Positions 456-60,533 of a stretch of 61,868 bases of DNA are shown piece by piece; position 1 is the stretch's first letter; every line of letters starts with the position of its first letter. The stretch lies in contig JBGAVT010000004.1 of assembly GCA_044227985.1 (NCBI GenBank), positions 1-61,868 of the forward strand, in the 5' to 3' direction. The notes under the pieces are model-generated. The model worked only from the letters and a program-made list of their open reading frames with translations, did not search any database and was not told where the DNA came from. The position numbers were made by a program, and so were the translations under genes. This DNA comes from Candidatus Saccharimonadales bacterium. GTDB taxonomy: Bacteria > Patescibacteriota > Saccharimonadia > Saccharimonadales > JAGPDM01.

Positions 456-574
456 TATTGTATTATAACAACTTTTATGTAAAAATACAAGTATAAGCTA
501 TACTGTATAGACAATTTATTTTTTAGTTCTGTGCTCGTTTTATACGTAGACCATAAAGCACTTTAATTAACATT

Positions 575-18455: not shown

Positions 18456-18515
18456 TATTTTTAATTTTTTTTAGCGTAGCCTCTCGCGTACAATCGCTAA
18501 TCCTTTTATTATATT

Positions 18516-18544
18516 TTGCATAAAATACTTTATTGTGATACAAT
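18516..18544 (+). promoter_or_regulatory. sigma70-like promoter upstream of ABC exporter pair
   Basis: TTGCAT-N17-TACAAT, with TG 1 nt upstream of the -10. Confidence 0.4.
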
Positions 18545-18704
18545 ATCAAGATAATGATTAAAATAATAGCCTAGCTAACCAGAGGAGACACTCTCTCTGC
18601 GCTAACGAGCACAAAATACACTTGTTTAATTACAATACCTAACTATTTTATATAACGGAGACAAAATAAAATCGGAATAAATAGTTCGATAAAAAGAAGG
18701 AATC

Positions 18705-20486
18705 ATGAAAGAAACAACAAACCGACAAATTACTGCCGCAACAATGCGGTATTATCTTCGTGCTATACGGAAATACAAATATGCATTTTATATTTCTACC
18801 GGATTAATGGTGATAACGGTCTTAATCCAGGGAGTTTTACTGCCTTTCCTCTATAGCCAAGTTTTCGATAAAATATCGCAGCTTAACGCTAACCCAAGCT
18901 TGGCAGATGATTTATGGCAGTTATTAGTTTATATCGGGATTTCATTGTTTGCGCTATTTTCTTTCTGGCGAGTTATTACCTACACATATGTTACAAACCA
19001 GGGGAAAGCTATGCGAGATCTTGAACAATCAACTTTTTCAGACCTACAAAAGCGTTCTTACTCATTCTTTTCTGACCGTTTTGGTGGTGCACTAGTGACA
19101 CAAACTAATCGCTTCGTTAATGGCCTTGAGGCTGTCCAGGACGCATTCTTCTGGGACTTAGCTCCCATGGCGATACGAAGTATAAGTTTTATTATTATTC
19201 TACTATTCGTATTTCCTGTGATTGGATTCGCATTACTGATCTGGCTAATATTCTTCGTAAGCGCTGTTCTTGGTCTGAGCGCATACAAAAGTAAGTTCAC
19301 TCGAGCTGCAGCCATAGCCGATAGCTCTGTTACGGCCGAGCTAGCTGATGCAATCACCAATACGGCCAATATTAAGATTTTCGGCCGTCGTAAGTTCGAG
19401 CAGAATCGTTATAACTCAGTAAGTTATGATAGATATAAAAAACGCGTAAAAAGCTGGGTGTGGAGCGAGCATATCATCGCGGTGCAGAGTATCTTGATGA
19501 TTTCACTAGAATTTTTTGTAATATATTGGTCAATTAAATCAGCGATTGATGGCACAGTTAGTATTGGTATATTACTGCTCACTACCTATTATTTATTCCG
19601 ACTTTTTAGTGATTTTTGGGAGCTTGGAAGTATCACCAGGCGCTTGGAGAAATCAATCGGTGATGGTGTTGAGATGACAAAGATACTACAAACCCCGCCA
19701 GATCTAGAGGACAAAATAGAAGCAATATCACCAAATTTCACAAGAGGTAAGATTGAATTTAAAGACGTCTCATTTCAGTATGATGAAGGTAACGTAAATT
19801 TATTTTCTAACCTAAATATTACTATCGCACCCGGTGAAAAGGTTGGGCTTGTAGGTCCTAGTGGCGGTGGAAAAACAACTATTACTAAATTGCTACTGCG
19901 ATTCATGGATCTTAGTTCTGGCAAGATTATGATTGATAATCAAGATATCTCCGAACTTATCCAGGATGAGCTACGCAGGAATATTGCTTTTGTAGCTCAG
20001 GAGCCAATTTTGTTTCATCGTAGTGTTCGTGAAAATATTGCTTATGGAAATCCTGGTGCAAGTGATGGTGATATCGAGCGAGTAGCAAAACTTGCTCACG
20101 CTGCTGAGTTTATCGACAAACTACCTGATGGTTACGATACGCTCGTCGGTGAACGGGGAATGAAGTTAAGTGGTGGTCAGAAACAGCGAGTAGCAATAGC
20201 TCGTGCCATGTTGGTTGAGGCTCCAATCTTGCTTTTGGATGAAGCGACTTCGGCGCTTGATAGTGAGAGTGAGTCCTTGATTGCTGATGCGCTCGATACT
20301 TTGATGCAGAAGCGAACCACTATTGTTATTGCCCATCGTCTGAGTACAATTCGTAAACTCGATAGAATTATCGTTATGAATAACGGTGAGATTGTCGAAC
20401 AAGGTAGTCACGATAATCTCATTATCGGAAAAGGTCTCTATGCCAAGCTGTGGAGTCATCAGTCAGGAGATTTCTTGGATGAGTGA
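18705..20486 (+). CDS. ABC exporter, fused permease/ATPase (type I exporter half-transporter)
   Basis: 593 aa. N-terminal 6-TM domain, Walker A GPSGGGKTT, signature LSGGQKQR and Walker B LLLDEATSALD. Confidence 0.9.
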   Translation: MKETTNRQITAATMRYYLRAIRKYKYAFYISTGLMVITVLIQGVLLPFLYSQVFDKISQLNANPSLADDLWQLLVYIGISLFALFSFWRVITYTYVTNQGKAMRDLEQSTFSDLQKRSYSFFSDRFGGALVTQTNRFVNGLEAVQDAFFWDLAPMAIRSISFIIILLFVFPVIGFALLIWLIFFVSAVLGLSAYKSKFTRAAAIADSSVTAELADAITNTANIKIFGRRKFEQNRYNSVSYDRYKKRVKSWVWSEHIIAVQSILMISLEFFVIYWSIKSAIDGTVSIGILLLTTYYLFRLFSDFWELGSITRRLEKSIGDGVEMTKILQTPPDLEDKIEAISPNFTRGKIEFKDVSFQYDEGNVNLFSNLNITIAPGEKVGLVGPSGGGKTTITKLLLRFMDLSSGKIMIDNQDISELIQDELRRNIAFVAQEPILFHRSVRENIAYGNPGASDGDIERVAKLAHAAEFIDKLPDGYDTLVGERGMKLSGGQKQRVAIARAMLVEAPILLLDEATSALDSESESLIADALDTLMQKRTTIVIAHRLSTIRKLDRIIVMNNGEIVEQGSHDNLIIGKGLYAKLWSHQSGDFLDE

Positions 20487-27051: not shown

Positions 27052-27197
27052 CTATGCTCCTTATCTGTAGTCAGTATAACGCATCTCCTAGGTCGCTGCA
27101 CTCGACTAAACAACAGTATTTTGTCCTTGACTTGAAAAAACGTTCATGGTTATATAAAGACGTAACTATACTGATAAAAAAAGGAAGCAGAACAGAT

Positions 27198-38169: not shown

Positions 38170-38650
38170 TTTTTTTCTCCATCGCAGTAAGCTGAATATT
38201 GAGACTATCATCGAGTTCTACAACATACACTGAAATTATTATTTTCAGTTTCGTGTTTAGATGGCTGATGGTGCAATAATTGATATTTTTGTTGGAGGAG
38301 CTTTTGCCACATGATAATTGTTCTTCCTTTGAGTAGTTTGAATCTAATCGCCTGATAATATCATTAGTAAATGATTTGATATCTTCGGCACGATTATTTT
38401 TCTTAGCACTATAAGTAGCCTTGTAGTTTGCGCATGTATCAATACATAAATTCATTCCATCAAATTCTGCATTTTCTAGAACCCATGATGAGTCAGTAAT
38501 TTTATTGACTTCATCTCGAAGTTTTTTCTCTTGTAAAATGTTGTCTAAATAGACATAAGAAAGACAAAGCAAGAAAATGGCTGATACAACAAAGAGAGTT
38601 TTTCTAAATACACTCCACTCTACCCACTTTTGAGTTTTTTTAACCCTCAT
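38156..38650 (-). CDS. N-terminally anchored hypothetical protein
   Basis: ORF 38156-38686. ATG 38650 (MRVKKTQKW...) is preceded by TATGAT-N6. Has a single hydrophobic span. Confidence 0.5.
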   Translation of the reverse strand: MRVKKTQKWVEWSVFRKTLFVVSAIFLLCLSYVYLDNILQEKKLRDEVNKITDSSWVLENAEFDGMNLCIDTCANYKATYSAKKNNRAEDIKSFTNDIIRRLDSNYSKEEQLSCGKSSSNKNINYCTISHLNTKLKIIISVYVVELDDSLNIQLTAMEKKIENH

Positions 38651-44098: not shown

Positions 44099-45820
44099 AT
44101 GGATACTGAAATAGATGGTGCTCAAGCATTAGTTAAAACTCTCGAAAATCTAGGTGTTGAGTTTATCTTCGGCTACTCCGGTGGCGCTGCTATTCCGATC
44201 TTCGATGCGTTAGTAACAGCTACCGATAAAATAAAGTTGATTATGTCACGCCATGAACAAGGTGCAGCTCATATGGCTGATGGCTATGCTCGCGCTACCG
44301 GAAAGCCAGGAGTAGTGTTGGTAACAAGCGGGCCTGGAGCGGCAAATACTATAACTGGTCTGATGACAGCTCACATGGATAGCGTGCCTATTATTGTTTT
44401 GACCGGTCAACAAATCCGTCCAATGCTTGGTAAGGATGCCTTTCAAGAGGCAGATATCTTTAATATGACGATGCCGGTGACAAAGCACAGCTATCTTGTC
44501 ATGGAAACTAATGATATTCCACGGATTACTCGTGAAGCTTTTCACATTGCCAGTACTGGTCGACAGGGCCCAGTTTTAATCGATCTTCCAAAAGATGTAA
44601 CCTCAGGTGCTTTTAACGGTAGTTTTGACGAACCGATAAAGCTCGGTGGCTACAAGCAAATACTACCACCTACCAAAGAAGACGTAATACCAATGCTCGA
44701 AGCACTTAAGAACGCTAAACGACCGGTGATTTTGGCTGGTCACGGAGCACTTTTATCTGGGGCTGCTAAAAATCTGCGTCAGTTGGCGGAAGAACTCGAC
44801 ATCCCAGTGACTACAACCCTACTCGGAAAAGGTGTTTTCCCAGAAACGCATCATCTTAGCCTAGGCATGATTGGCATGCACGGCACGGCCTATGCTAACA
44901 AAGCTATCGTCGATGCTGATTTGATATTTTCGGTTGGTTCACGTTTTGATGATCGTATCATTGGCAAAGCATCTGAATTTGGTAAAAATGCCAAGATACT
45001 TCATCTAGATATTGACGTTTCTGAGTTTGGAAAAATGATAAAACCTGATTTAAAGCTTGCGGCCGATGCAGATTCAGCACTTCAAATCATGGCTGATTTA
45101 GCGGAGCCACAGAAAAGAGCTGAATGGAATTCAAAGCTTGACGGCTACCGAAAAGATTTCCCGCTTTCATACAAAAAGACCGGTGAACTAACCATGCAAC
45201 AAGTAATCGATGAAGTGTACGATCAAACCGAAGGCAAGGCAATTGTCAGTACCGACGTTGGTCAGCACCAGATGTGGGCAGCTCAGTTTTATAAAACCGA
45301 TCATGGTGATAACTGGTTAAGTTCAGGTGGTGCCGGAACTATGGGTTTTGGTTTTCCAGCTGGCATTGGAGCTCAGGTTGGTCGTCCGGATGACACCGTA
45401 GTTGTTTTCGCTGGTGATGGTGGGTTCCAGATGACGATGCCAGAGCTTGCAACTGCAGCTGTTAATAAGTTGCCGATTAAAATCGTCGTCCTCGATAATA
45501 AATATCTCGGTATGGTTCGCCAATGGCAGGAATTATTTTATGAAAATCGCGAAAGCGGCGTTGATCTTGAAGGTAATCCCAATTTTGTAAAATTAGCTGA
45601 GAGCTATGATGGCATCAAGGGTTTCCATGTCGATAGACCAGAAGATGTCACCAGTGCTGTTGCTCAAATGCTAGCCTACAATGATGGGCCTGCACTTTTG
45701 CATGCTGAGGTCACTAAGAATGAAAACGTATTTCCGATGATTCCAGCCGGTGCACCACTCGAAGATATGATAACCGAGCCACCACAGCATAAAATGGAAA
45801 AACCAACGGGGAGTACCTAG
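44099..45820 (+). CDS. ilvB: acetolactate synthase large subunit (biosynthetic type)
   Basis: 573 aa. Has [29 protein letters not shown] and the TPP motif GDGGFQMT...[10 protein letters not shown] small-subunit gene follows. Confidence 0.9.
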
Positions 45821-45821
45821 A

Positions 45822-46073
45822 ATGCCACAAAAGAAAACGCATTACATCTACTTACGGGTAATCGATGAGCCTGGTGTATTAGTTCGCGTGGCGCAAGTTT
45901 TTACTCGACGTAGTTTCAACATTGATTCAGTTGAAGTTAAAGAAGTAAAAGATGAGCCAAATCAAGCTGATATTGTCATCAAAGCTCGAGGAAATGCTGA
46001 TTTAATCCATCAGACAAAAGCGCAGTTACAGAAACTGATAAACGTTTTGACGGTCACTGATCAGACTAAATAA
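45822..46073 (+). CDS. ilvN: acetolactate synthase small subunit, ACT domain only (83 aa)
   Basis: LRVIDEPGVLVRVAQVFTRRSFNIDS is a typical IlvN ACT core. It lacks the C-terminal domain of long IlvH-type subunits. Confidence 0.7.
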   Translation: MPQKKTHYIYLRVIDEPGVLVRVAQVFTRRSFNIDSVEVKEVKDEPNQADIVIKARGNADLIHQTKAQLQKLINVLTVTDQTK

Positions 46074-48191: not shown

Positions 48192-48347
48192 CGTACATAA
48201 TTAGTTTAATAACAATTTTTGATAATTTTAGTTTAAGATCTCTCTAGTCCGCTACGTCAACAGGTTTTGAGGACCATCAAATTCAATTAATCTACTCATA
48301 ATTATCTTTTAGGGTGGAGCACTTGTGATTTAAAGTAAAATACTTTA

Positions 48348-48376
48348 TTGACAAATATTATACTTAGTGCTATATT
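48348..48376 (+). promoter_or_regulatory. promoter cassette copy 1: TTGACA-N17-TATATT
   Basis: aTTGACAAATAT-tatacttag-TGCTATATT has a consensus -35, a 17-nt spacer and an extended -10. It shares the 12-mer and spacing with the copies at 49540 and 53970. Confidence 0.65.
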
Positions 48377-48420
48377 ACAAACTGTTAGATAAAAACAAAA
48401 AAATAAAAAGGTTATCAAAT

Positions 48421-49527
48421 ATGATTGCAACTGTAACTCCAATTCGACCAGATATACATGTTCCAGGTGAACATGATCCAACACAGCAGCTTGGAACATT
48501 GCTCGACCCAGAAGCATCAGGGTTTGATACTTCAGATGATCTTGGTAGTGAAGTTTCAGCAGGAAAGAACCCTGACTGGTTAGAAAGAGGGACTTTCGAT
48601 ACCGAAGAGAGCCAGATTGATGCGGCGACTTCTGCGGCTGCCTTTTCTTATGAGATTTTACAGTCGTTCATTGAACAAGTAGTTACAGTTCAAACCTTAT
48701 TAGATGCTTTTACTGATAAAATGGCCGAAATTAGCGATACCGATGTAGCCTTACCTTTACAGAGAGAATTCCGTCGAGCGTTGAGCAATGGTGGAAATAA
48801 GACTGTCGATGCCAGTGATGGAACTATAATGGATATCTTCGGACAAACTGTTGCTGCGAAAATTAGGGCTAATAGAGATGGAACCGAGCTGGATCTAGAT
48901 ATTCCTACGGTCGATCCAGCACTTTTGGTAGACTTGAGACCCTTGCGTGCTACTGAGCAAGAACTACGTCAAACAGAGACAGTGCCAGAGGTTCCGCCTA
49001 TCGATACGGATTTTACTGCGTACACAACTCGAGAGAATACTGATGTAGTTGATCAAATAAGCCGCCCTGCACCTGCAGGTAGTTTAGACGTGCCCGAATT
49101 TGAAGAAGGACCAAAAAGGCGTGGCCGGTTATCAGGAGTACTTGGTTCACTTGCTGGCAGTGTAGGTGAAACAACTGGCGCATTTCGTAAAGCCTACGAT
49201 GAAGCAGTCGAGCGAGCACAAGAACCTAGAACTCCTCAAGAACAAGCTGTTGAAACAAATACTGAGCCAAATGAACCTGAAGCGGGCAAGAACACTTTAG
49301 GTACTACTACAGCAACAGTTGCTCCAGATATCGAGACTAGAGCTCAAGATCCGCAGGCTGATGTAGATGTGGTAGATAGTCAACCGACAGATGAATCACA
49401 AACCAGCAGCCATAGTATTGGAGGAGCTTTCAGGGCTCGTCGACAAGCGAATAAACAAAGAATACAAGATGAACGAGATGCGCTAGAAGCTGCTTCCAGG
49501 GCATCAGTATTAGCTGAGAGAAGATAA
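48421..49527 (+). CDS. acidic hypothetical protein (368 aa), orphan-locus gene 1
   Basis: ATG 48421 (MIATVTPIRPD...) lies downstream of promoter copy 1. The ORF-track GTG 48367 overlaps the -10. The protein is D/E/T-rich with no hydrophobic span and no motif recognised. Confidence 0.6.
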   Translation: MIATVTPIRPDIHVPGEHDPTQQLGTLLDPEASGFDTSDDLGSEVSAGKNPDWLERGTFDTEESQIDAATSAAAFSYEILQSFIEQVVTVQTLLDAFTDKMAEISDTDVALPLQREFRRALSNGGNKTVDASDGTIMDIFGQTVAAKIRANRDGTELDLDIPTVDPALLVDLRPLRATEQELRQTETVPEVPPIDTDFTAYTTRENTDVVDQISRPAPAGSLDVPEFEEGPKRRGRLSGVLGSLAGSVGETTGAFRKAYDEAVERAQEPRTPQEQAVETNTEPNEPEAGKNTLGTTTATVAPDIETRAQDPQADVDVVDSQPTDESQTSSHSIGGAFRARRQANKQRIQDERDALEAASRASVLAERR

Positions 49528-49539
49528 GAAATAATGATA

Positions 49540-49568
49540 TTGACAAATATGACATATTTTGCTATTAT
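49540..49568 (+). promoter_or_regulatory. promoter cassette copy 2: TTGACA-N17-TATTAT
   Basis: aTTGACAAATAT-gacatattt-TGCTATTAT. Confidence 0.65.
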
Positions 49569-49617
49569 AATACCAGTGAAATTTAAGCACTAGAACTAAC
49601 CACTAAGGAAAACCACT

Positions 49618-51183
49618 ATGGACGCACTAAACCCAAACTCTAGCCCAGATCAAGACCCTAACCTTGTTAGTCCTGAAGTTGGTGTTTCACCAGAAGTTCT
49701 GGCTGATCTTAAATCATGGGAAGCAATTGTAGAACAGACTAAAATCTTACTAGAGGCTTCAAATCGCCCGAATGTACACAATGATCCTAATTTTAGGCAT
49801 TCAAAGTCAATAGTAACTTTGAATGATGGTACTAATCTATCTACGATAGGATTATATAGTAACTTGAGGGGTGGCCGTCTTGCGCCAGGAGATATTTCTC
49901 TGTCAATAGAACAAAAGGTAGATGGAAACAATCTTCCGATTGGTCAAAGAGTCACTCGAGTGGAGGGTCATGGTTCCCAAATAGGCTTGTTTGGAAAGAT
50001 AGAAGAAACAGACGGAACTACAAAGATAACATTGGAGAGAGATGACGTAAATCTCACACACCGAGAAAATATTGAAGTTACTATCACTCCGAATGATGAC
50101 GGCTCTGAGCGTGTTGAGTTGATTAGCGAACTGGACGATGAAAATTCTTATATAGTTAATCCAGATTATGACCCGTGGGTAGGCAATGAGAAATACTTAA
50201 AAATCGAAAAGCCAGTTTCAGTTGCCGATAGAATTGCAAAGAAAATGGATGTAAAGAATAGTAGATTGTGGAAGGCTATTTCTACTAGATTCGATAAACG
50301 TCAAGCTAGAAACAATGGTGACAACCAACCACAAGATGGCTCAGTTGAGCCTGACTCAGAGCTAATGAGAAACATAAAAGGGTCAATCGCAACAGTCCCA
50401 GCTGCATTAGTTGCGGGTGTTGGAATGGTTGTGCTTGGTAAATTCGGATACGGGCTTGTGAGTAATCCAGAAAAAGCAGTTAACTTAGCTAACAATGGCG
50501 TGATAGAAAGAGGCAAGGAACTACTTGGTGATCCTTGGAGCATTGTCGTAGGTCTTGGCCGATCAGCAACAACTGGTGCGTTTTTCGCAGGTGCAACAAC
50601 TGGTCTTTTGGGTGATGCTCAGCTAGTAGATAACCCTTTTTCCAAGGATCGAGATCCACGAGGACTTGCATCATATATGCCAGCAAAGGCTATGACTTGG
50701 ATTGAACGCGGTGAACAAACCAAGAGAAGTGAAGCAGCTGCAAAAAGGCGAGTAACTTGGGCGCTCGGTGCGGCAGCTAATTTTGCTCTTCTCGGGAATG
50801 GCCTTCCTGGTGTAGCGTACGGATTCGGAGCGCTTAGTGGCCGAATTGCAGGTCGGACATTGCAAAGATTTGGTCCTGGAGCATACGAATCCCTTATAAA
50901 TAAGATAAAAGGTGAAGGTGAAGATGAAGAGCAGACCCCAGACGATCAAACTGGTCCAACGCCTAATCAACCTCAGTCGCCACCACCTCCAGCAGCAAAT
51001 GATCCATCTCCTCCTAGCCCAGATGCCGGAACCCCACCACCATATGACCCACCTCGAGGTCGCCGCCCTGGTGGTCGACTGATAGGAGAACCTGCACCTG
51101 CTACCGGTGTTCCTGCACCCAACGTTGTTCCTGCAGTCGACCCAAGAGATCCACGTAATGGCCGTAATTCGAGCGTAATGTAG
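49618..51183 (+). CDS. hypothetical membrane-associated protein with Gly/Ala-rich hydrophobic segments and Pro-rich tail, orphan-locus gene 2
   Basis: 521 aa after SD AAGGA. Hydrophobic segments are IATVPAALVAGVGMVVLGKFGYGLV, IVVGLGRSATTGAFFAGATTGLLG and WALGAAANFALLGNGLPGVAYGFGAL. The tail reads PPPPAANDPSPPSPDAGTPPPYDPP. Confidence 0.65.
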   Translation: MDALNPNSSPDQDPNLVSPEVGVSPEVLADLKSWEAIVEQTKILLEASNRPNVHNDPNFRHSKSIVTLNDGTNLSTIGLYSNLRGGRLAPGDISLSIEQKVDGNNLPIGQRVTRVEGHGSQIGLFGKIEETDGTTKITLERDDVNLTHRENIEVTITPNDDGSERVELISELDDENSYIVNPDYDPWVGNEKYLKIEKPVSVADRIAKKMDVKNSRLWKAISTRFDKRQARNNGDNQPQDGSVEPDSELMRNIKGSIATVPAALVAGVGMVVLGKFGYGLVSNPEKAVNLANNGVIERGKELLGDPWSIVVGLGRSATTGAFFAGATTGLLGDAQLVDNPFSKDRDPRGLASYMPAKAMTWIERGEQTKRSEAAAKRRVTWALGAAANFALLGNGLPGVAYGFGALSGRIAGRTLQRFGPGAYESLINKIKGEGEDEEQTPDDQTGPTPNQPQSPPPPAANDPSPPSPDAGTPPPYDPPRGRRPGGRLIGEPAPATGVPAPNVVPAVDPRDPRNGRNSSVM

Positions 51184-51199
51184 GGTATAGGAGAATATC

Positions 51200-53551
51200 A
51201 TGCCAATGCCAATGCCCGATCATGACCCAGCTACTTTGCCAACAGAGCGAGAGTGGCTAATTGCCCATAGTGATCAAGATATAATAAACGGTTTAGTCGA
51301 GGGTTATACCCGATTAGATGAGTTCGATAATGTTTGGCATGACCCTGCTACTGGCGAAACAGAGAAGGTTAGTGGAAATGCACAAGCGATACAGGAGAAA
51401 CTTTTACACGACGGTGAGACCCCAGATGGCATCATTGGACAAAGTGATCTTGAAGCTATCAGTCTTAAAACAGTCGGAGAGTATTTAAAACTTTTAAATT
51501 CGGCTACGTATAGTACTGGAGCAAGCCGCTTCGTTCATGAAAAACAAACAATCGACAAGAAGGTCAGAAAACAAAAGAATCTAGATACGGCCAGTCCTGA
51601 GGATGTCGCTGCATTTGATAACTTACTTCACAGAGTCACTGTCAGAACAACGCTTGATCACTTGAGCCTTGATTCACAAGGTGACCCAAGAGTTTATACA
51701 AGTTCTGATGAATATAACCAAGCTCGTGATCGAGTCACGGCAGTGGTAAATGAAGCACAGAACGCACCGTTCTATCAAAACATGTCACCAAATGAAAAGT
51801 TAAATTGGCGCAATAACATCATTAATACTTTCGAAAGTACTGCTGTGGATGAAGAGGCAAACACTGCAGCCACTGAAGCTGCAGCTGAGGCAGCCCGAGC
51901 AGCAACACTGAGTACCGCGGAACTAGATCTCGCGACCCAGCGAAGGTTGCTAGCAAGCGATGCGGTTAAGACGAGCCGAACATTCGGTAGCCTGCGAATT
52001 TTAAAAAGACGTGGTGAGCGTAGAAGATCTAAAGAGCGATATCTCGGAGCTGCTGAAACAGTTCGCCAAACACAGATTGAGAACGAGATTGCTAATGGAG
52101 ATATCCCGAATACACCCGAAGCAATTATAATCCGAAACTCACAACTAGAGGCAAAAGAAGATGCTCTTCGTATCGCCGAAGTTGGTGTGTCAATGCAAAA
52201 TGACGGATTGAAGCAACAGGCTGATGGTAGTACCAACGACATAAATGCCGGTTCACGATACTATCGGATGGTGCTACGTGCCGCAAAAGGTTGGAGAAAT
52301 CTTCCTTGGTGGGGAAAAAGTCTTTCGACTGCTGCGATCGGTGTTGCTGGTGCTGGCGCCGCTCTTCTTGGCGGTCCGGTTTTGGTTATCGCTCCAGTGG
52401 TTACGGCCCTACGATCTGCTCCAGCAATTAACGCACTCCGCACTAAAGAGGAAAGCATGTCAGAGCATAAGCGATGGAATAAATTAGGCCACCGTACCGA
52501 GAAGCTTGGTAAACGTATCGTGAAAGCTGTACGGGGAACCACACCAGAAGAAGTTGTTAAATCATCAAGACGTGCGACTGAAAAGGAAATCAATGCCGAC
52601 TTTAGAGGCGAGAGGATACGAACTACAAGAAAACTAATCGGAAGAGTATTAGTAACTGCAGTTCTTGGTAAAGGCGCTGCTTACGCTGGAGAGTATATCT
52701 CCGACCATGCAGAAGGAATTAGGGACGGATTGGGCGATATCGGGAGCTGGTTTGGTGATGCGGCTGATAAAGTCCATGAATGGTTACCAGGAGACTACCT
52801 TGCCAAGAAAGATATCGACTTACAGTCACTTCTTTCTGGCGGTAAGATTCGCCCTGATACTCCAGAGTGGGATGCTGCCGTACATATGCTACAGAGTCAT
52901 CAGGCTAGCGGCAGAAACGCTGATCATTTAGCCAGATTACTACCAGGTTTTGACGATCCTAAATTAGTCGATAATATGTCTGATGTTAAAGAACAGATGC
53001 GAGCTGTCTATGAGTCATGGAGCCCTGAGAAACGTTTCGCATGGGGTCACTTTATAGAGTCAAATGCTGGAGAAAAATGGCAGCAAATGGCCGACCTACG
53101 TGGACCTGGAGTAGTTCGTGATGCGATTGGCCGAGTTGTTGAAGCCCAATCACAGGATCCACTTCACATCCAACAAATGGATGCCGTTACTCAGTTAGCA
53201 CGTAATTTCCCTAACTCGCCTAATATAACCTATGAACTTGGTAGATTACAGAGCGTACTCCCAAGTAGAAACGATATCTTTGATAATGGTGGTATATTTA
53301 GTACACCTGAGTACATTGCTAGCAATAGTCCAAATGTAGCAGAACAGATGAACGGATTCCTCGGACATCTTCAATCGATTATTGGTGGAGGAAATCAAGC
53401 AGCAATTGATCAGGTAGTAAATAATCCTGATACATACCTAAATACTGGTCACGATGGTTTCCTTGCGTCACAATTAGGTGAGCTAAAAGGCAAAACTGGA
53501 GGCGATCTAGTCGCTGCTATCAGTAGCCTGAAAACTAGATATGGCTTTTAA
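51200..53551 (+). CDS. large hypothetical protein with central hydrophobic hairpin, orphan-locus gene 3
   Basis: 783 aa after SD AGGAG. Contains WWGKSLSTAAIGVAGAGAALLGGPVLVIAPVVTAL. No motif recognised. Confidence 0.65.
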   Translation: MPMPMPDHDPATLPTEREWLIAHSDQDIINGLVEGYTRLDEFDNVWHDPATGETEKVSGNAQAIQEKLLHDGETPDGIIGQSDLEAISLKTVGEYLKLLNSATYSTGASRFVHEKQTIDKKVRKQKNLDTASPEDVAAFDNLLHRVTVRTTLDHLSLDSQGDPRVYTSSDEYNQARDRVTAVVNEAQNAPFYQNMSPNEKLNWRNNIINTFESTAVDEEANTAATEAAAEAARAATLSTAELDLATQRRLLASDAVKTSRTFGSLRILKRRGERRRSKERYLGAAETVRQTQIENEIANGDIPNTPEAIIIRNSQLEAKEDALRIAEVGVSMQNDGLKQQADGSTNDINAGSRYYRMVLRAAKGWRNLPWWGKSLSTAAIGVAGAGAALLGGPVLVIAPVVTALRSAPAINALRTKEESMSEHKRWNKLGHRTEKLGKRIVKAVRGTTPEEVVKSSRRATEKEINADFRGERIRTTRKLIGRVLVTAVLGKGAAYAGEYISDHAEGIRDGLGDIGSWFGDAADKVHEWLPGDYLAKKDIDLQSLLSGGKIRPDTPEWDAAVHMLQSHQASGRNADHLARLLPGFDDPKLVDNMSDVKEQMRAVYESWSPEKRFAWGHFIESNAGEKWQQMADLRGPGVVRDAIGRVVEAQSQDPLHIQQMDAVTQLARNFPNSPNITYELGRLQSVLPSRNDIFDNGGIFSTPEYIASNSPNVAEQMNGFLGHLQSIIGGGNQAAIDQVVNNPDTYLNTGHDGFLASQLGELKGKTGGDLVAAISSLKTRYGF

Positions 53552-53567
53552 CACATAAGGAGAAACA

Positions 53568-53915
53568 ATGAACGAAAACAAAAATCAATTAGTCGAAGAA
53601 AAATTAGCAGAAATATTAAAATCTTTAGGGTATGAAAATGCCAGTACTGAACAAACTGCCGAGTTTGCCACGGATTTCATGACAGTTGTTCAAAGCAGGG
53701 CTTTCCTTCGGCTTGAAGAATACCTGAAAACCGAAGAAAACCTGGCAAAGATGGATGCTCTACAGACGCAATATGGTGATATGGCACCGGAAGTTGTTCA
53801 ATTTCTATCTTCCATCGGCTACGATTATTTTGATGTCTTTTTGCTGGAGATGGACATCTACGCTGGTGAGCTAAGGGAGAGCAACGATGAAATGCTCGCT
53901 CACTTTGCAGAGTAG
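53568..53915 (+). CDS. small acidic protein (115 aa), orphan-locus gene 4, paralog of 55696-56025
   Basis: SD AAGGAG. Shares LKSLG near the N-terminus and GEL(R/A)E near the C-terminus with the 109-aa protein. Confidence 0.6.
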   Translation: MNENKNQLVEEKLAEILKSLGYENASTEQTAEFATDFMTVVQSRAFLRLEEYLKTEENLAKMDALQTQYGDMAPEVVQFLSSIGYDYFDVFLLEMDIYAGELRESNDEMLAHFAE

Positions 53916-53969
53916 ACTATATTTAATCTCAACCATTTATCGAAATACTATAAAGTATGATTTAATATA

Positions 53970-53998
53970 TTGACAAATATGCAATGATTTGCTATTGT
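53970..53998 (+). promoter_or_regulatory. promoter cassette copy 3: TTGACA-N17-TATTGT
   Basis: aTTGACAAATAT-gcaatgatt-TGCTATTGT. Confidence 0.6.
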
Positions 53999-54051
53999 AT
54001 ACTTACGTTATAAATAAAAAACAAAAATCGTAAAACAAAAAAAGGAAAAAC

Positions 54052-55665
54052 ATGTACAAAGATGGACCAGAATTCGGTGGAGGGTCAGACCCAGCGATGG
54101 GTGAACTCGACCCTTCAGTAGTAACTTTAGTTGGCGATCAACAGCCAGATGCTCAAGAAGCCTCACCAGAGACAGGTGATCAAATACCTGCATACACGGC
54201 AGCCGAGCAACTTTCTTCGCCAGAAGACGGTGAACAATCAAGAGATCGCGCTTCAGCTAGATTGTTAGGTCGCGTAGCTAATATAGCTGGAAGATTAGCT
54301 GAAGGAATTAACAACCGACGAACACTATCGGAAGTTGCTTCTGATACTAAAGAAGCTTTTGGAGCTCGCGTTAACGGCGCAAGTGATCGAATAAAATCAA
54401 TTGCACAAACTAGTTTAGATGTAACTAAAGATATTGCTATAGGCGTCGGCGTTGAGGCGGTTTATTTAGTGACAGAGCCAGTAAAAGTTCTTGGAAAATC
54501 TGTAATAAGAGCCGGTATAGGAGTAGGAAGACAAGCAGCTAAAGCTGCAGATTCAATGTACTCAGGTCTCGATAAAATGGGCAGTTCTATTGATGCAAAA
54601 ATGTTTGCGACCGAAGAAGCTATGAAGAATGGTGTTGAATCAACTCGGACCTTTTTCAAAGACAAAGCCGAAGCAGCTAAGACTCGCAAGGAAGAACGCT
54701 CAGATCGCGTAGCGCTCAAGCGCATAGCTCGCGGTGAAAAGATCAGTGAAAATATCGCCGCTCTGAAATATCAAGTAAATGAAACGATTAGTGCTAGACA
54801 AGACGCTCGTACAGAAAAAGCCGAAGCATCAGCAGCGAAATGGCGAGCTAGGGGTGAAAAAGTTGGTGCTGCAAGAGACCAAATCAAGACTAACTTTGAA
54901 GATGGGAAGGCAGAACGCGCAGCAAACCAAGAATTACTTGAAGCCCATCGAGTTAAGCGAAGAGCCGAAGCCGACGGTTTACGGGATGCTCGATTGAAAG
55001 TCGCTGAAAAAGCGACCGAAGAACGCTCAGATCGTATCGCAAACAAACGCTATGCTCGAAAAGATAAGATCGATGCAATCAAAGATAGTGTAGCAGGCAA
55101 GCTCGATGAACGACGAAATGCTCGTACTGAAGCACAGGCAGAACGCGCTGCCAACCAAGCAGAATCAGAAGCAAATCGAACTGCACGAAGAGCCGAAGCC
55201 GACGGTTTACGGGATGCTCGATTGAAAGTCGCTGAAAAAGCGACCGAAGAACACTCAGATCGTATCGCGCTCAAGCGCATAGCTCGCGGTGAAAAGATCA
55301 GTGAAAATATAGCCGCTCTGAAATACCAAGTAAATGAAACGATTAGTGCTAGACAAGACGCTCGTACAGAATCAGACAGAGAGCAGGATTTGAGAAAAGC
55401 AGGTTTGCAAGTTTCGGAGACAGATCAACAGCAAGAAGCTAGCGATGGTCAAAGCGAACAAACCGAGTCTGTTGTCCCAGAAGGTGATGTGGCGAGCCTA
55501 GCTAACCAATCTGTCGGAGAAGTTCAAGAAGAGACGCCAATTGGAAGACAAACGCGTGAAGCGCTTAAGGCTCGAGCTGAAGCAGCACGTAGGTCACGAG
55601 AAGCTAGTGCTGAAGGTGGTACTACTACAACAGAAGCACCTGAAGAATTAGCTCTAGCTGCATAG
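54052..55665 (+). CDS. charged helical-repeat hypothetical protein, orphan-locus gene 5
   Basis: 537 aa after SD AAGGA. Acidic head, one amphipathic/hydrophobic stretch (IAIGVGVEAVYLV), then long K/R/E/A-rich repeats with duplicated blocks. Confidence 0.65.
   Translation: MYKDGPEFGGGSDPAMGELDPSVVTLVGDQQPDAQEASPETGDQIPAYTAAEQLSSPEDGEQSRDRASARLLGRVANIAGRLAEGINNRRTLSEVASDTKEAFGARVNGASDRIKSIAQTSLDVTKDIAIGVGVEAVYLVTEPVKVLGKSVIRAGIGVGRQAAKAADSMYSGLDKMGSSIDAKMFATEEAMKNGVESTRTFFKDKAEAAKTRKEERSDRVALKRIARGEKISENIAALKYQVNETISARQDARTEKAEASAAKWRARGEKVGAARDQIKTNFEDGKAERAANQELLEAHRVKRRAEADGLRDARLKVAEKATEERSDRIANKRYARKDKIDAIKDSVAGKLDERRNARTEAQAERAANQAESEANRTARRAEADGLRDARLKVAEKATEEHSDRIALKRIARGEKISENIAALKYQVNETISARQDARTESDREQDLRKAGLQVSETDQQQEASDGQSEQTESVVPEGDVASLANQSVGEVQEETPIGRQTREALKARAEAARRSREASAEGGTTTTEAPEELALAA
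54691..55371 (+). repeat. intragenic dispersed direct repeats
   Basis: 54691-54816 versus 55246-55371 (126 nt, 6 mismatches by hand alignment). 54958-55040 versus 55186-55268 (83 nt, 1 mismatch). Confidence 0.85.
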
Positions 55666-55695
55666 TAAATACAAAAACATAAAAGGAGAAAAGAA

Positions 55696-56025
55696 ATGAT
55701 AGAAATTAATGAAAAACTACTAAAGTCACTAGGTATTGAATTAAATGGAGATGAGACAGCAGAAATGCTGAAACACATCACCGATACGCTGAATGAGAGA
55801 GTTGGTCTTGAGATTGCAGAAGAATTAACAGATGAAGAACTAGCTGAGCTGATGGCTATAGAATCTGACGAGGATAAGGCAGCTTGGTTGCAAGAAAACC
55901 TACCTGAATACATCGACATCATCGAAGATGAAGCTGATATATTACTTGGTGAGTTGGCGGAGGGTTCAATAGAATTAGCTGAAACAAGCCAAGAAGAATC
56001 TGACGTTGAAGAAGATCATAACTAA
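55696..56025 (+). CDS. small acidic protein (109 aa), orphan-locus gene 6, paralog of 53568-53915
   Basis: SD AAGGAG. Very acidic C-terminus. Confidence 0.6.
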   Translation: MIEINEKLLKSLGIELNGDETAEMLKHITDTLNERVGLEIAEELTDEELAELMAIESDEDKAAWLQENLPEYIDIIEDEADILLGELAEGSIELAETSQEESDVEEDHN

Positions 56026-56034
56026 TAGATAGTG

Positions 56035-57498
56035 CTAGACGACGCTAATGTCGACTGAAGGTCGAAGCTTTGAAGCAGTCTTCATAGCAGCATGAACATC
56101 ATGGTTTTCGAATCGTTCGAATGGAGAATTATCTTCGTCACGAACACCATCGAGAACCGTGATGGCTTGCTGTTCTAGGCGGTAATCAAATTGTGGAGCC
56201 CACTTACGGCTACCGAGCTTGGCAGTCATTGAACAATTATCAACCATATAGGCAACACCTTGGGCGTGCATATATGGATTGAGAGAATCAACGGCTTCGA
56301 TGATAGATTCGTTAACAACCTCACTCCATTCATGGCCTTTGCTCTTGAGTAGATCAACTTGAGCAACCATACAAGCAAGGTAGAACCCTGCTGTGGTCGG
56401 ATCAACGGCTTGATTCTCATCACGATTTTTACGCACGTGTTCGCCGACACGCCAGACTTCAGTGTTACTGATGTTGCTGAGTGGAAATTTCTCAAGTCGC
56501 TTAACAGTATCGATGACACTGCCAAATTCGCGGCCACTGTGAACTTCGGTGTAGATCTCATCGAGAATTGCAGCAAATGGTTCATAAGAAGCATTATACG
56601 CACGACGAAGTTCGGTTTGTTGATCATCATTTAGATCATCATAAACAGCTTTTAGCCCATCGTGAGAAATTGTTTGGCTGAGCGGTCCGGTGATAACTTC
56701 TGCAGTGTCACGAAAAGCCTGTTCGGCAGATCGACCCTCGCGAACAAAATAACGGTTCAAAACTTCGATCATGGCATGAACACCACCAAGTAAAATTCCT
56801 CGTTCACCAAAGATATCAGAGCGATACTCCATCTCTAGTGTAGTCTGGAAGACAAATGGTGCACCCAAGCCCACTGCCCATGCGAGCGCAACTTCGTTAG
56901 AGTTTCCAGAGATATCTTGTTCAACCGCGAAACTACAGTTAATTCCAGCACCTTCAGTTTCTTTGCCTTGTTCATATAGGCGTCGAACTGACGGTCCCAT
57001 TCCCTTTGGACATACACCGATGATGTTAATGTCATCACGAATTGATTGACCGATGCTTTTTACGTAGCCGAGAAGGAAACCGTGGCTCAAACCAAGTGTG
57101 CTGCCAGGTTTCATAGCTTCGGTAATTTTCTGCCAGTTTTCTGCCTGTGCAGCATCAGAAATTAGCAGGATAGTCATGTCAGATTTTGAAATCATGTCAT
57201 ACATTTCACCAAGCGTTTCATTATCACGACTAAACCCAGCAGTTTCTGCCTTGGCAAAACTGCTCGAACCTTCACGTAGACCAACACCAACGGTGATATC
57301 AGTTCCATCGAGTGAGTCACGTAAATTTTGAGCTTGAGCAGGGCCTTGTGAACTCCAACCAATGACAGAAATTTTCTTGATATCGCCAAAACCTTGAGCT
57401 AGTTTATCGAATAGATTACGCCCACCGCGGACGATAGTTTCCTGTTCGCCAGCAAAGTCGACAGTTTCAGTAGTAAAAACATTTGATGTAAAGGCCAT
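56035..57498 (-). CDS. ilvC: ketol-acid reductoisomerase, class II (long form)
   Basis: ATG 57498 (MAFTSNV...) follows SD AAGGAGG, giving 487 aa. Has GWSSQGPAQAQNLRDS, CPKGMGPSVRRLY, SDIFGERGILLG and LGSRKWAPQFDY. Confidence 0.9.
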   Translation of the reverse strand: MAFTSNVFTTETVDFAGEQETIVRGGRNLFDKLAQGFGDIKKISVIGWSSQGPAQAQNLRDSLDGTDITVGVGLREGSSSFAKAETAGFSRDNETLGEMYDMISKSDMTILLISDAAQAENWQKITEAMKPGSTLGLSHGFLLGYVKSIGQSIRDDINIIGVCPKGMGPSVRRLYEQGKETEGAGINCSFAVEQDISGNSNEVALAWAVGLGAPFVFQTTLEMEYRSDIFGERGILLGGVHAMIEVLNRYFVREGRSAEQAFRDTAEVITGPLSQTISHDGLKAVYDDLNDDQQTELRRAYNASYEPFAAILDEIYTEVHSGREFGSVIDTVKRLEKFPLSNISNTEVWRVGEHVRKNRDENQAVDPTTAGFYLACMVAQVDLLKSKGHEWSEVVNESIIEAVDSLNPYMHAQGVAYMVDNCSMTAKLGSRKWAPQFDYRLEQQAITVLDGVRDEDNSPFERFENHDVHAAMKTASKLRPSVDISVV

Positions 57499-57559
57499 CA
57501 AAACCTCCTTCTTTTTCAGTATTTTTAAGTATACGCTACTAGAGGTAAACATCAAAATT

Positions 57560-57949: not shown

Positions 57950-58011
57950 TTCATATCATCTGTAGGATAGTGCTACACTAGTTGCTAGACGCTAAACAAG
58001 GATTACGAAAA

Positions 58012-58953
58012 ATGGATTCCAAAAAGATAATGTTATTTTCGGGAAACTCCAACCTATCACTAGCAAAAGAAATCACAGAAAATCTTGGTATAGAATTAGG
58101 CAACGCTCAGATTGATAGTTTTAGCGATGGTGAAACAAGAGTTAAGATTAATCAACCAGTTCGTGGCGATGACGTTTTTATTTTGCAGAGTACCAGCTTT
58201 CCACCTAATCAGAATTATATGGAGTTATTTATTACGCTCGATGCGTTACGTCGTGCATCAGCTGGACGGATCACAGTTGTTCTTCCGTATTTTGGTTACG
58301 CCCGCCAAGATCGTAAAGACCGTCCGAGAGTGCCGATTACCGCTAAATTAATTGCTAATCTTCTGACAGCCGCCGGTGCTGATCGTGTAGTCACTGTTGA
58401 TTTACATGCTCACCAAATACAGGGTTTTTTCGATATTCCGCTTGATCATATTTACGCTGTTAATCTTTTTGTTGAGCGACTCAAGCAGGTTACTGATAAT
58501 CCGGTTGTTATCAGTCCAGATGCTGGTGCCGTTAAAATGGCACTCGGTTTCGCGAAACGATTAAATTGTGAAATTGGTATCGTCGATAAGCGTCGTATGA
58601 GTGATCGGGAGACACTTGCAGCCTATGTGCTCGGAGACATCGAAGGAAAAGATGCAATTTTGACTGATGATATTGTCGCCACAGCTGGCTCATTAGTCTC
58701 TGCTGCTGAAGCTTTAAAAAAAGCAGGCGCCAAGCGAGTATTCGCGGTTGCTACCCATGGTGTTTTATCCGGGCCAGCGCTTCAGCGACTCGAAACCAGT
58801 GGAATTGAAACTTTATTTACAACCAACACCATTGAGCAGCCACCAGAGAAAATAAATCATCCAAAAATTGAGGTTCTCAGTATAGCTAATCTGCTTTCTG
58901 AGGCAATCCGTCGTATTCATAATGCTGATTCTATCAGCAGCTTATTTGACTAG
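58012..58953 (+). CDS. prs: ribose-phosphate pyrophosphokinase
   Basis: ATG 58012 (MDSKKIMLFSG...) follows AAGGA. Has YFGYARQDRK and the PRPP loop DDIVATAGS. Confidence 0.9.
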   Translation: MDSKKIMLFSGNSNLSLAKEITENLGIELGNAQIDSFSDGETRVKINQPVRGDDVFILQSTSFPPNQNYMELFITLDALRRASAGRITVVLPYFGYARQDRKDRPRVPITAKLIANLLTAAGADRVVTVDLHAHQIQGFFDIPLDHIYAVNLFVERLKQVTDNPVVISPDAGAVKMALGFAKRLNCEIGIVDKRRMSDRETLAAYVLGDIEGKDAILTDDIVATAGSLVSAAEALKKAGAKRVFAVATHGVLSGPALQRLETSGIETLFTTNTIEQPPEKINHPKIEVLSIANLLSEAIRRIHNADSISSLFD

Positions 58954-58993
58954 TATGCTTTGTACAAAGTGTCTATCTTCTTACTGCTAATCT

Positions 58994-59002
58994 TGCTATA
59001 AT
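58994..59002 (+). promoter_or_regulatory. extended -10 (TGcTATAAT) upstream of purF (SD-led transcript)
   Basis: TGCTATAAT ends 25 nt upstream of ATG 59028. SD AAGGAG lies between them. Confidence 0.4.
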
Positions 59003-59027
59003 TATCTACCTATAAGGAGAGCAGCAC

Positions 59028-60533
59028 ATGTGTGCAATTGTCGGTATCATCGATTCCTCACCCGTCAACCAGACGCTGTACGACGCCATGATAATGCTCC
59101 AACACCGCGGACAAGATGCAGCTGGGATCATGACAAGCGACCCTGATGCAACGATTCATAGCTACAAGAATAATGGCTTAGTCCAAGACATCTTTAAAGC
59201 TAAGCAAATGCAGGACCTTACTGGAATGATTGGTATTGGGCATTGTCGCTACCCAACAGCTGGATGTGACTCAGCCTCAGAAGCTCAGCCATTTTTTGTT
59301 AGCAGTCCTTTCGGTATTGGCTTGGCACATAACGGCAACATAACTAATGCAGTTCAGCTTAAGAAAGAGCTGTTCGAGAAGAAGCACCGTCATGTTAGTA
59401 CAACCTCTGATTCTGAAGTTTTGCTGAATGTTTTGGCTGATAATCTTGAAGTAGTTGACTCGGTAAAGATGACGCCAGATGATTTATTCAATGCTGTCGC
59501 CCGATTGCACGATATTGTCCGAGGTGCTTATGCATTTGTGGCTATGATTGCTGGTTATGGAGTGCTCGGTGTGCGTGACCCATATGGCATTCGCCCGCTC
59601 GTGATTGGTCAAAGAGAAACTCCTGATAAAACTGATTATATGATTGCATCCGAATCGGTAGCACTAGAGGCTTTAGGCTTTAAATTTATGCGTGATGTTG
59701 AACCAGGTGAGGCGGTATTTATTGATAAGTATGGTGATTTTAGCGCCAAGCAATGTGCTAAAAATCCTCGTCTCGTACCGTGCGCATTTGAATATGTTTA
59801 CTTTGCTAGACCTGATTCAGTCATGAATGGTATTTCTGTTTATGATTCCCGCGTTTTGATGGGCAACAAGCTGGCTGAGAATATCAAGAAAAATTATCAA
59901 GACATTCTCAAGCAGATCGATGTGGTCATGCCAGTTCCCGACAGTGGTAGAACTGCTGCCTTACAATTATCAAAAAACCTCAATCTTGAGTATAGTGGTG
60001 GCCTGGTTAAGAACCGTTACATTGGTCGAACGTTTATTATGAGCAGTCAAGCAGAACGCCGTAACTCTGTTCGAAAGAAATTGAACACGATTAATTCTCA
60101 GTTTAAAGGTAGAAATGTTCTTTTGGTTGATGACTCACTCGTACGAGGTAATACATCAAAGAAGTTGATTGAAATGGCGCGGGCTGCTGGTGCGAATAAA
60201 GTATTTTTCGCTACTGCTGCACCACCAATTATTTCACCGAACGTGTATGGTATCGATATGCCAACACGAGATGAGATGGTAGCGCATAATCGTACTGAAA
60301 AACAGGTAGCTGAGCACATTGGTGCAGATGCCATGATTTATCAAAAGGTTGATGATCTACGCGATAGCATTATCGATTTAAACCCAAAAATTAAACAACT
60401 AGACATGTCGTGTTTCACCGGTGAGTATGTGACAGGTGATATCGATGATACTTATCTTGAGCACCTTAACCAAATTCGTATTGAGTTGGCAGCCAGAAAG
60501 AAACTGAGTGAAAAACTAATAGTAAATGGATAG
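59028..60533 (+). CDS. purF: amidophosphoribosyltransferase
   Basis: 501 aa. MCAIVGI gives the N-terminal nucleophile Cys, HRGQDAAG is present, and the PRTase loop is VDDSLVRGNTS. Confidence 0.95.
   Translation: MCAIVGIIDSSPVNQTLYDAMIMLQHRGQDAAGIMTSDPDATIHSYKNNGLVQDIFKAKQMQDLTGMIGIGHCRYPTAGCDSASEAQPFFVSSPFGIGLAHNGNITNAVQLKKELFEKKHRHVSTTSDSEVLLNVLADNLEVVDSVKMTPDDLFNAVARLHDIVRGAYAFVAMIAGYGVLGVRDPYGIRPLVIGQRETPDKTDYMIASESVALEALGFKFMRDVEPGEAVFIDKYGDFSAKQCAKNPRLVPCAFEYVYFARPDSVMNGISVYDSRVLMGNKLAENIKKNYQDILKQIDVVMPVPDSGRTAALQLSKNLNLEYSGGLVKNRYIGRTFIMSSQAERRNSVRKKLNTINSQFKGRNVLLVDDSLVRGNTSKKLIEMARAAGANKVFFATAAPPIISPNVYGIDMPTRDEMVAHNRTEKQVAEHIGADAMIYQKVDDLRDSIIDLNPKIKQLDMSCFTGEYVTGDIDDTYLEHLNQIRIELAARKKLSEKLIVNG

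Follow-up and report, generated by a model that had tools for sequence, protein, structure and literature searches.

Six genes and their products

The DNA analysed here comes from an uncultivated wastewater Saccharibacterium, a very small and probably host-dependent bacterium, and the whole stretch of 61,868 nt, to which all position numbers refer, is called the window. It contains a locus of six open reading frames (ORFs) on the same (+) strand, named g1 to g6 (Table 1). They are arranged in three transcription units (g1; g2-g3-g4; g5-g6), each headed by a near-consensus promoter (P1, P2 and P3). A first-pass annotation, made from the sequence alone, had described them as an orphan, co-regulated six-gene module encoding a membrane- or envelope-associated complex, and its six ORFs and their lengths agreed with our ORF calls.

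A Shine-Dalgarno (SD)-like motif was found before all six genes, against 12 of the 45 other ORFs. Elsewhere, 8 of the 23 genes that stand first in their unit lack an SD and have their -10 element only 4-13 nt upstream of the start codon; these housekeeping genes therefore look leaderless. Within the operon-like locus units, successive genes are separated by 16-30 nt, and the units contain no convincing intrinsic terminator. The SD sites, the leaderless-looking neighbours and the same-strand units without terminator-sized gaps had all been described in the first-pass annotation, and all three descriptions held.

Table 1. Features of the locus and related sites, with amino acid identity and dN/dS against the related metagenome-assembled genome and the matching protein on contig L016 (E value)
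Feature	Position	Strand	Description	Identity	dN/dS	L016 match
P1	48347..48376	+	-35 48348-48353; -10 TATATT 48371-48376; leader ~37 nt to g1 ATG (inferred)			
g1	48421..49527	+	368 aa, pI 4.35, Cys-free, no hydrophobic segment, acidic, largely disorder-like	83-86%, in-frame indels	~1.0	
P2	49539..49568	+	TTGACA, 17 nt, TG-extended TATTAT; leader ~42 nt (inferred); repeat family D3			
g2	49618..51183	+	521 aa	76%	0.55	
g2 N-terminal domain	aa 1-150		variable	50%	0.85	
g2 hydrophobic region	aa 253-412		conserved, Gly-rich, GxxxG motifs, GNGLP turn			b270 (4e-9)
g2 tail	aa ~431-521		Pro-rich			
g3	51200..53551	+	783 aa, predicted all-alpha, two large domains	94%	0.08	c663 (5e-14)
g3 hairpin	aa 374-410, nt 52319-52429		37-aa Gly/Ala hydrophobic stretch, central GGP, joins the domains			
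g4	53568..53915	+	115 aa, pI 4.17, divergent DUF5663-like helical protein, 16 nt after g3	96%	0.08	e117 (8e-5)
P3	53969..53998	+	TTGACA, 17 nt, TG-extended TATTGT; leader ~46 nt (inferred)			
g5	54052..55665	+	537 aa, charged repeats, acidic tail	44% (tblastn) to 55% (global alignment)	0.4-0.7 by region	
g6	55696..56025	+	109 aa, pI 4.05, Pfam DUF5663 (PF18908), 30 nt after g5	98%	0.05	
Fourth cassette copy	L137:16263-16292	+	heads a 1267-aa acidic protein (L137:16320-20123) with no Pfam match			
One-insertion variant	L137:14924	-	AATTGACAAAATAT-N9-TGCTAATAT; heads a 448-aa acidic orphan (L137:13365-14711, -)			

A Pfam scan of the six proteins gave a single family match, that of g6 to DUF5663. 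All six had chance-level matches only in NCBIfam, and the same was true of the PADLOC defence models (E 0.03-0.04); the PHROGs scan gave best E values of 0.04-0.09, none of them significant. PDB sequence searches with g1, g2, g3 and g5 returned nothing significant, and tblastn found no match for g3 and g6 in phages or for g2 in plasmids (50,697 phage and 72,556 plasmid records). In a word-indexed search of 5.8 billion proteins g3 had one orthologue (94%), and an exhaustive HMMER search of 1.84 billion representatives returned its own fragment and one distant relative, P0007 (26% identity, E 5e-7), while a profile of the g2 hydrophobic region matched one protein, b270 (P0008 on contig L016). 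The large proteins g1, g2, g3 and g5 are thus without known family, and none of the characterised or phage families that the first-pass annotation had named as a possible objection was met in Pfam, NCBIfam, PHROGs or PADLOC. The family of g6 and the promoter type are already catalogued, so the orphan status claimed for the whole locus stands for the large proteins and falls for g6.

No cysteine was found in the 2433 residues of the six proteins, compared with ~17.6 expected at the window rate, and the six proteins of the related locus on contig L016 are also cysteine-free. A signal-peptide-like N-terminus was seen in none of the six. The Gly/Ala-rich hydrophobic segments noticed earlier in g2 and g3 were recovered with Kyte-Doolittle maxima of 2.0-2.3. 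A search for GxxxG revealed GALSGRIAG and several other such motifs in g2, and GFVAGFTTGLTGG and GFMSGHFVG in b270; the Gly-zipper models of Pfam gave no match in the locus proteins. In g3, Lys and Arg residues lie on both sides of the hairpin, and c663 of contig L016 is alike. These charges suggest that the hairpin has both ends inside and that the two large domains are cytoplasmic.

The composition of g5 is dominated by Ala (16.6%), Glu (11.4%), Arg (10.1%) and Lys (6.9%). It has a conserved N-terminal module, one amphipathic or hydrophobic stretch (aa 126-144) and two pairs of DNA repeats (54691-54816/55246-55371, 126 nt, 95%; 54908-55078/55136-55306, 171 nt, 82%), and these internal duplications are recent. 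Two independent SRA assemblies, L004 and L005, both end 690 nt into g5, inside the 126-nt repeat; the g5 repeat region is thus prone to misassembly, and the number of its copies in metagenome-assembled genomes (MAGs) may be unreliable.

The small acidic protein g6 matched PF18908 over profile positions 2-79 of 84 with 33.5 bits (gathering cut-off 23.7) and an E value of 6.2e-8. For g4 no Pfam match was found at E <=1, and its homologue e117 matched DUF5663 weakly (E 3.4e-3). The first-pass annotation had taken the two small proteins as paralogues, each the partner of the large protein before it, and both the paralogy (32% identity by BLASTP, E 1e-7) and the positions (g4 after g3, g6 after g5) were confirmed; the g4 group aligned with the DUF5663 group in hhalign at 92.6% probability and E 4.6e-7. 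Like members of PF18908 elsewhere, g6 follows a long charged helical protein, but g4 and e117 are divergent and below the Pfam cut-off, and the present locus has two copies, of which g4 follows a membrane-hairpin protein. The g6 model (pLDDT, the predicted local distance difference test score, 76.8) is predicted to be all-helical, with a helical hairpin and a long C-terminal helix. The fold search with the DUF5663 model gave no significant match in PDB or BFVD, and the DUF5663 profile gave none among PDB sequences. No W-x-G motif was found in g4, g6 or e117, and in the literature we found no paper mentioning the DUF5663 family.

The g6 protein shares 43-48% identity with DUF5663 members of other Saccharibacteria. 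In two other lineages the DUF5663 gene directly abuts a gene for a charged helical protein of 432 or 575 aa, and these pairs sit among mur and fem cell-wall genes. The 575-aa protein (L013:5284-7011), encoded directly upstream of DUF5663 among Mur ligase and FemAB genes, carries an N-terminal FHA domain, a typical cytoplasmic phospho-signalling module which binds phosphothreonine. On contig L009 the DUF5663 gene is followed by a gene for a 552-aa protein (L009:10416-12074) with a C-terminal HopA1 domain (E 1.4e-7, above the Pfam cut-off), and on contig L016 the DUF5663-like gene follows that of a 173-aa protein. By hhalign, no homology was found between g5 and the DUF5663 partners of the other lineages.

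Three large proteins elsewhere in the window carry surface- or secreted-type domains, namely an 863-aa NHL-repeat beta-propeller protein (13295-15886), a 916-aa PKD/DUF11 protein with 16 cysteines (27054-29804) and an 827-aa cutinase-PKD protein (35728-38211, -). They contrast with the cysteine-free proteins of the locus.

Conservation and selection

To the left of the locus lie valS, a Mur ligase gene, FemAB genes, pheT, ilvB, ilvN and the genes for a CN-hydrolase and an FKBP, and to the right ilvC (convergent), msrB, prs and purF, then dnaG and rpoD. Contig L016, on which P0007 is encoded, has the order pheS, pheT, ilvB, ilvN, five unannotated genes, ilvC (convergent), msrB, prs and purF. 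Its proteins b270, c663 and e117 correspond to the g2 hydrophobic region, g3 and g4, the g3 homologue being just 23-26% identical, and no counterparts of g1, g5 and g6 were found in L016. Since only g2-g3-g4 occupy the same slot in this divergent relative, the ancestral core is the g2-g3-g4 operon, and on this comparison g1 and g5-g6 are younger, fast-evolving additions. The six-gene order is kept whole in a related species, but the distant syntenic relative conserves unit 2 only, so that a co-regulated module of six genes was too strong a claim.

The related species is represented by a Saccharibacteria MAG from study SRP286056, in which the DNA of the locus is ~90% identical; a study citing SRP286056 dealt with municipal wastewater and river water (PMC9405806). 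We compared the locus genes with it by the ratio of nonsynonymous to synonymous substitution rates (dN/dS, Table 1). The housekeeping neighbours show 95-100% protein identity. Strong purifying selection was evident for g3, g4 and g6, with values like those of ilvC (0.04) and of the FKBP gene, which bears out the earlier view that the genes are real. Fast evolution was observed in g1, in the N-terminus of g2 and in g5; in the last of these the N-terminal module and a C-terminal motif are kept, and the central repeat region is hypervariable and replaced.

The overall GC content of the locus (0.38-0.47) is slightly above that of its surroundings, and its GC content at third codon positions (GC3) is 0.27-0.42 against a window norm of 0.30-0.43. 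Two 60-nt rows pointed out earlier as GC-rich, at 51001 and 52321, had been counted exactly (36/60 and 38/60), and they encode the Pro-rich tail of g2 and the Gly/Ala membrane hairpin of g3. As GC3 is at or below the window norm, these rows reflect Ala, Gly, Pro and Arg codons rather than foreign DNA, and a foreign origin by GC content was rejected. Identical copies of the locus were found on contigs of several JGI and SRA samples; the wastewater samples containing the contig include JGI 3300056850, 3300056759 and 3300027924 and SRR26424858.

These results bear on whether the locus could be the remnant of a prophage or mobile element, with tape-measure-like or structural genes, lodged between ilvN and ilvC. 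Its large helical proteins with repeats and its position interrupting the ilvBN ... ilvC neighbourhood would be in keeping with such a remnant. The explanation is largely refuted and highly improbable, however, considering that the core occupies this slot also in a relative with ~25% protein identity, that GC3 is native, that the PHROG matches are poor and no phage or plasmid record was matched, that neither a tRNA nor an integrase gene was found close to the locus, which is flanked by housekeeping genes, and that strong purifying selection acts on g3, g4 and g6. An Rfam scan of the window revealed one tRNA and nothing else. From its composition and synteny, the locus is judged native and lineage-restricted.

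Among the neighbours, ilvB and ilvN occupy 44099-46073, ilvC (the long class II form) 56035-57555, prs and purF 57982-60533, and purD L137:14980-16251. To our knowledge, genes of branched-chain amino-acid and purine biosynthesis are unusual in reduced Saccharibacteria and other members of the candidate phyla radiation (CPR). The stop codons of ilvC and g6 are only 9 nt apart in convergent orientation (56025-56035) with no terminator-like hairpin, and transcription from P3 should therefore run antisense into ilvC. A similar convergent layout into ilvC, with a gap of 21 nt, is present at L016:12897-12919. The purF gene (59028-60533) is 100% identical to L007:7003-8505, with a synonymous rate (dS) of 0, compared with dS of 0.15-1.4 and ~91-95% DNA identity in its neighbours, which suggests either recent recombination between populations or a chimeric MAG.

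The promoter cassettes

The 12-mer ATTGACAAATAT was found in three exact copies in the window, all on the (+) strand at 48347, 49539 and 53969, in agreement with the three near-identical promoters reported there earlier; base composition predicts ~0.024 copies in the window. The only match with one mismatch in the window is at 19523 (-). After each of the three copies comes N9-TGCTAT, so that every promoter consists of TTGACA, a spacer of 17 nt and a TG-extended -10 element; TGC precedes each -10 hexamer, and the -35 hexamer agrees with TTGACA in 6/6 positions in P1, P2 and P3. With <=2 mismatches allowed, TTGACA-N14-TGNTATAAT has P1-P3 as its sole sites in 61.9 kb, and the best matches to the promoter consensus in the window are also these three. 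All of them fit the sigma-70 extended -10 pattern (16-18 nt spacer, TG one base 5', TAnnnT). P2 begins 12 nt past the g1 stop codon. The inferred leaders are A-rich and ~37-47 nt long; the leaders described earlier were thus borne out, at somewhat different lengths from the ~40-55 nt then given.

P1 in the related MAG has the same hexamers and TG but a different spacer, the pattern expected of a working promoter. The likeness among the three copies stops within ~33 nt, so a larger DNA duplication behind P1-P3 was ruled out. The sequence ATATT-GACA-AATAT within the cassette forms a short inverted repeat, which may represent a candidate operator overlapping the cassette.

The motif at 19523 lies inside a gap (18456-20385) with ~1 kb devoid of genes in crude ORF calling. 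The sequence just 5' of 20386 resembles the C-terminal end of an ABC transporter ATPase, and may belong to a tandem gene or reflect a frameshift.

The DNA readable in this genome comprises the window and the fetched flanks, ~82 kb in total. A fourth exact copy of ATTGACAAATAT was detected there, ~14 kb beyond the left window end, so the earlier remark that the 12-mer was not seen elsewhere in the window holds, but it does not extend to the rest of the genome. P3 shares the 17-mer ATATTGACAAATATGCA with the promoter of the 1267-aa orphan, in which a TATTGT -10 follows after 17 nt, and a variant with one insertion heads a 448-aa orphan (Table 1). On contig L016, ATATTGACAAATAT precedes a gene adjoining the syntenic locus. 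The DUF5663 partner genes of other Saccharibacteria have TTGACT-N17-TGnATAAT promoters with A-rich leaders, and promoters of this kind are found before other genes on L009, L013 and L016. Through a metagenome-wide scan, which shows a generic motif and does not define a regulon, the full cassette was found in at least 120 unrelated public metagenome contigs (GC 0.27-0.68). Among the matches listed, a TATAAT-like -10 mostly follows, an ORF begins within 300 nt at 96 of the 121 sites, and none is from, or related to, this genome.

Judged by these occurrences, the cassette is a generic near-consensus strong sigma-70 promoter and not a locus-specific regulatory element, and that part of the first-pass annotation had to be given up. 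The annotation had itself mentioned a common strong-promoter consensus as an objection, and in part this is what we found, because the cassette recurs in the same genome, in the divergent relative and in the metagenome contigs. The likeness to the sigma-70 extended -10 promoters of Firmicutes and many other bacteria extends to TTGACA, 17 nt, TG at -15/-14 and TAnnnT, and the same 18 specified bases precede ORFs in the unrelated metagenome contigs. Unlike in the plain sigma-70 consensus, identity here runs past the hexamers (ATATTGACAAATATG, and the 17 nt shared by P3 and the promoter of the 1267-aa orphan), behind which promoter copying or a shared operator may lie. Within the ~82 kb, this promoter form was found only before proteins without Pfam match and never before housekeeping genes. 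The "promoter cassette" should be regarded as an ordinary strong promoter and not be taken as the signature of a regulon.

Such a widespread promoter raises the question of whether the six genes belong together, or whether a conserved unit 2 operon merely stands beside unrelated, fast-evolving genes (g1 and g5-g6) which share a generic promoter. The latter would explain why L016 matches g2, g3 and g4 only, why the cassette and its variant also head unrelated orphans of 1267 and 448 aa, why similar promoters occur in L009, L013, L016 and the metagenome contigs, why g1 has a dN/dS of ~1, and why g4-g6 is the only similarity among the six proteins. We consider it unlikely, since the paralogues g4 and g6, placed equally after a large helical protein, tie units 2 and 3 together, the lack of cysteine, the SD motifs and the tight same-strand packing without terminators are common to all six genes, and their order is kept whole in the related species.

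Candidate roles of the locus

The reading we favour, tentatively and with less than even confidence, is that of an abundant scaffold which lines the membrane on its cytoplasmic side and has DUF5663 proteins as adaptors. The layout of promoter, leader and SD would give high, largely constitutive expression, and the locus genes are probably highly expressed. Their products would be abundant, mostly alpha-helical structural proteins at the inner membrane face, where g3 would be anchored by its Gly/Ala-rich helical hairpin with both large domains inside, and g2 by Gly-zipper-like helices. The small protein g4 would bind g3 and g6 would bind g5, in each case the long helical protein just upstream, and both could act as adaptor, cap or chaperone controlling the self-association of the partner. 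The whole might then be a clade-specific membrane scaffold for envelope organisation, for division or budding, or for a contact site. Because of the cytoplasm-facing charge pattern, a scaffold at the inner face fits better than an envelope-exposed complex; of the membrane- or envelope-associated complex proposed at first, the membrane part is plausible.

In architecture only, the locus proteins resemble the coiled-coil scaffolds of monoderms (EzrA, DivIVA/Wag31 with their partners, and FhaA-type FHA adaptors), which are likewise long charged helical proteins tethered to the cytoplasmic face. The resemblance to FHA adaptors extends to the DUF5663 partner elsewhere that has an FHA domain and sits among mur and fem genes. 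Unlike in the EzrA, DivIVA/Wag31 and FhaA families, to which no sequence similarity was found, the anchor here is a central hairpin and not an N-terminal helix or amphipathic motif.

Several points weigh against such a scaffold. High expression is deduced from promoter quality alone, and the topology from a positive-inside rule applied by hand. The AlphaFold2 model of g3, built on a 3-sequence alignment, had a pLDDT of 41.5 and was judged unusable, so it lends no fold-level support. With its dN/dS of ~1, g1 may contribute nothing. Sequences that change as quickly as g1, g5 and the N-terminus of g2 are more usual in proteins exposed to hosts or phages than in internal scaffolds, and exported monoderm proteins typically lack cysteine too. 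L016 has neither unit 1 nor unit 3, so co-function of all six genes is a possibility at most, and no homology with g5 could be detected in the DUF5663 partners of other lineages, so the pairing is one of position only.

The same rapid evolution would suit exported or host-directed effectors or pore-formers accompanied by small acidic chaperones, which would leave the cell independently of signal peptides and insert into a target membrane through Gly-zippers, with g4 and g6 maintaining secretion competence. Saccharibacteria are typically epibionts that need to manipulate their host. Partners of pI 4.1-4.2 directly downstream of large proteins, the lack of signal peptide and cysteine, the GxxxG(xxxG) motifs in the hydrophobic segments of g2 and b270, the low identity of g5 (44%) and the g2 N-terminus (50%) beside neighbours at 95-100%, and the HopA1-domain protein adjoining a DUF5663 gene in another Saccharibacterium all agree with it. 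Yet no gene for a secretion ATPase or channel was found in the ~82 kb, the g3 hairpin, with positive charges at either side, would rather belong to a resident protein with both ends inside, g3 is as conserved as housekeeping genes, and one DUF5663 partner has an FHA domain, which speaks for cytoplasmic signalling. Moreover, g6 is predicted to be all-helical, unlike the alpha/beta class I chaperones of the type III secretion system (T3SS), there is no WXG motif in the small proteins, and no fold match was found in PDB or among viral proteins (BFVD). Effectors are in our view an unlikely explanation.

The arrangement does recall the known chaperone-client pairs (T3SS class I, FliS-flagellin, and the Lap/LXG helpers of the type VII secretion system, T7SS), in which a protein of 100-115 aa and pI ~4 stands beside a large helical client without signal peptide. 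The T3SS class I pair differs by the all-helical model of g6, which has no significant PDB fold match, and by the absence of secretion genes in the ~82 kb; WXG100/T7SS differs in that no WXG was found in g4, g6 and e117 and no FtsK-like ATPase in the window or flanks. With the solved chaperones, g6 shares neither sequence nor fold similarity.

A protective role under stress can also be imagined, in which the membrane would be coated and stabilised by the amphipathic repeat helices of g5 together with the g2 and g3 anchors, in the manner of PspA/IM30, LEA or apolipoprotein-like proteins. The repeated charged helices of g5, rich in Ala, Glu, Arg and Lys, the strong promoters and the membrane-embedded anchors would suit this role. 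However, the resemblance is compositional only, there is almost no constraint on the sequence of the g5 repeat region, and no Pfam or NCBIfam match (PspA_IM30, LEA, apolipoprotein or others) appeared even at E 1. We regard such a coat as quite improbable.

A broader version of the membrane hypothesis would see g2-g3-g4 together with g5-g6 as a new, Saccharibacteria-specific membrane machine, whose hairpin-anchored helical proteins would either build an envelope or host-contact structure or themselves be delivered to the host membrane. In this version, which is possible but rather doubtful, DUF5663 would be a class of small acidic partners for long helical proteins throughout the phylum, and ATATTGACAAATAT would mark strongly expressed lineage-specific genes, possibly under one regulator. 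A structural system that is confined to its clade and had gone unannotated before is known from this phylum and habitat, namely the Pam pili of Ca. Mycosynbacter amalyticus, a wastewater Saccharibacterium, which are CPR-specific and consist of Ig-like pilins assembled by donor-strand exchange with small chaperones (bioRxiv 10.64898/2026.03.03.709456). Kinship with these pili was ruled out, as the locus proteins are predicted to be all-alpha with internal hydrophobic hairpins.

Like the rest of the CPR, Saccharibacteria have very small cells, have mostly not been cultivated and in many cases live attached to host bacteria; their genomes are rich in orphan proteins, and their envelope and host-interface proteins are largely uncharacterised. 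The locus provides a testable handle on such proteins in the form of the conserved g2-g3-g4 core under purifying selection. Its layout also contrasts with its surroundings, as leadered SD genes with near-consensus promoters stand before lineage-specific orphans only in the ~82 kb, where many housekeeping genes look leaderless. In several lineages of Saccharibacteria, DUF5663 is again paired with a long helical protein; if this pairing reflects a real partnership, it would give a role to a whole Pfam domain of unknown function and would indicate abundant, clade-specific structural proteins.

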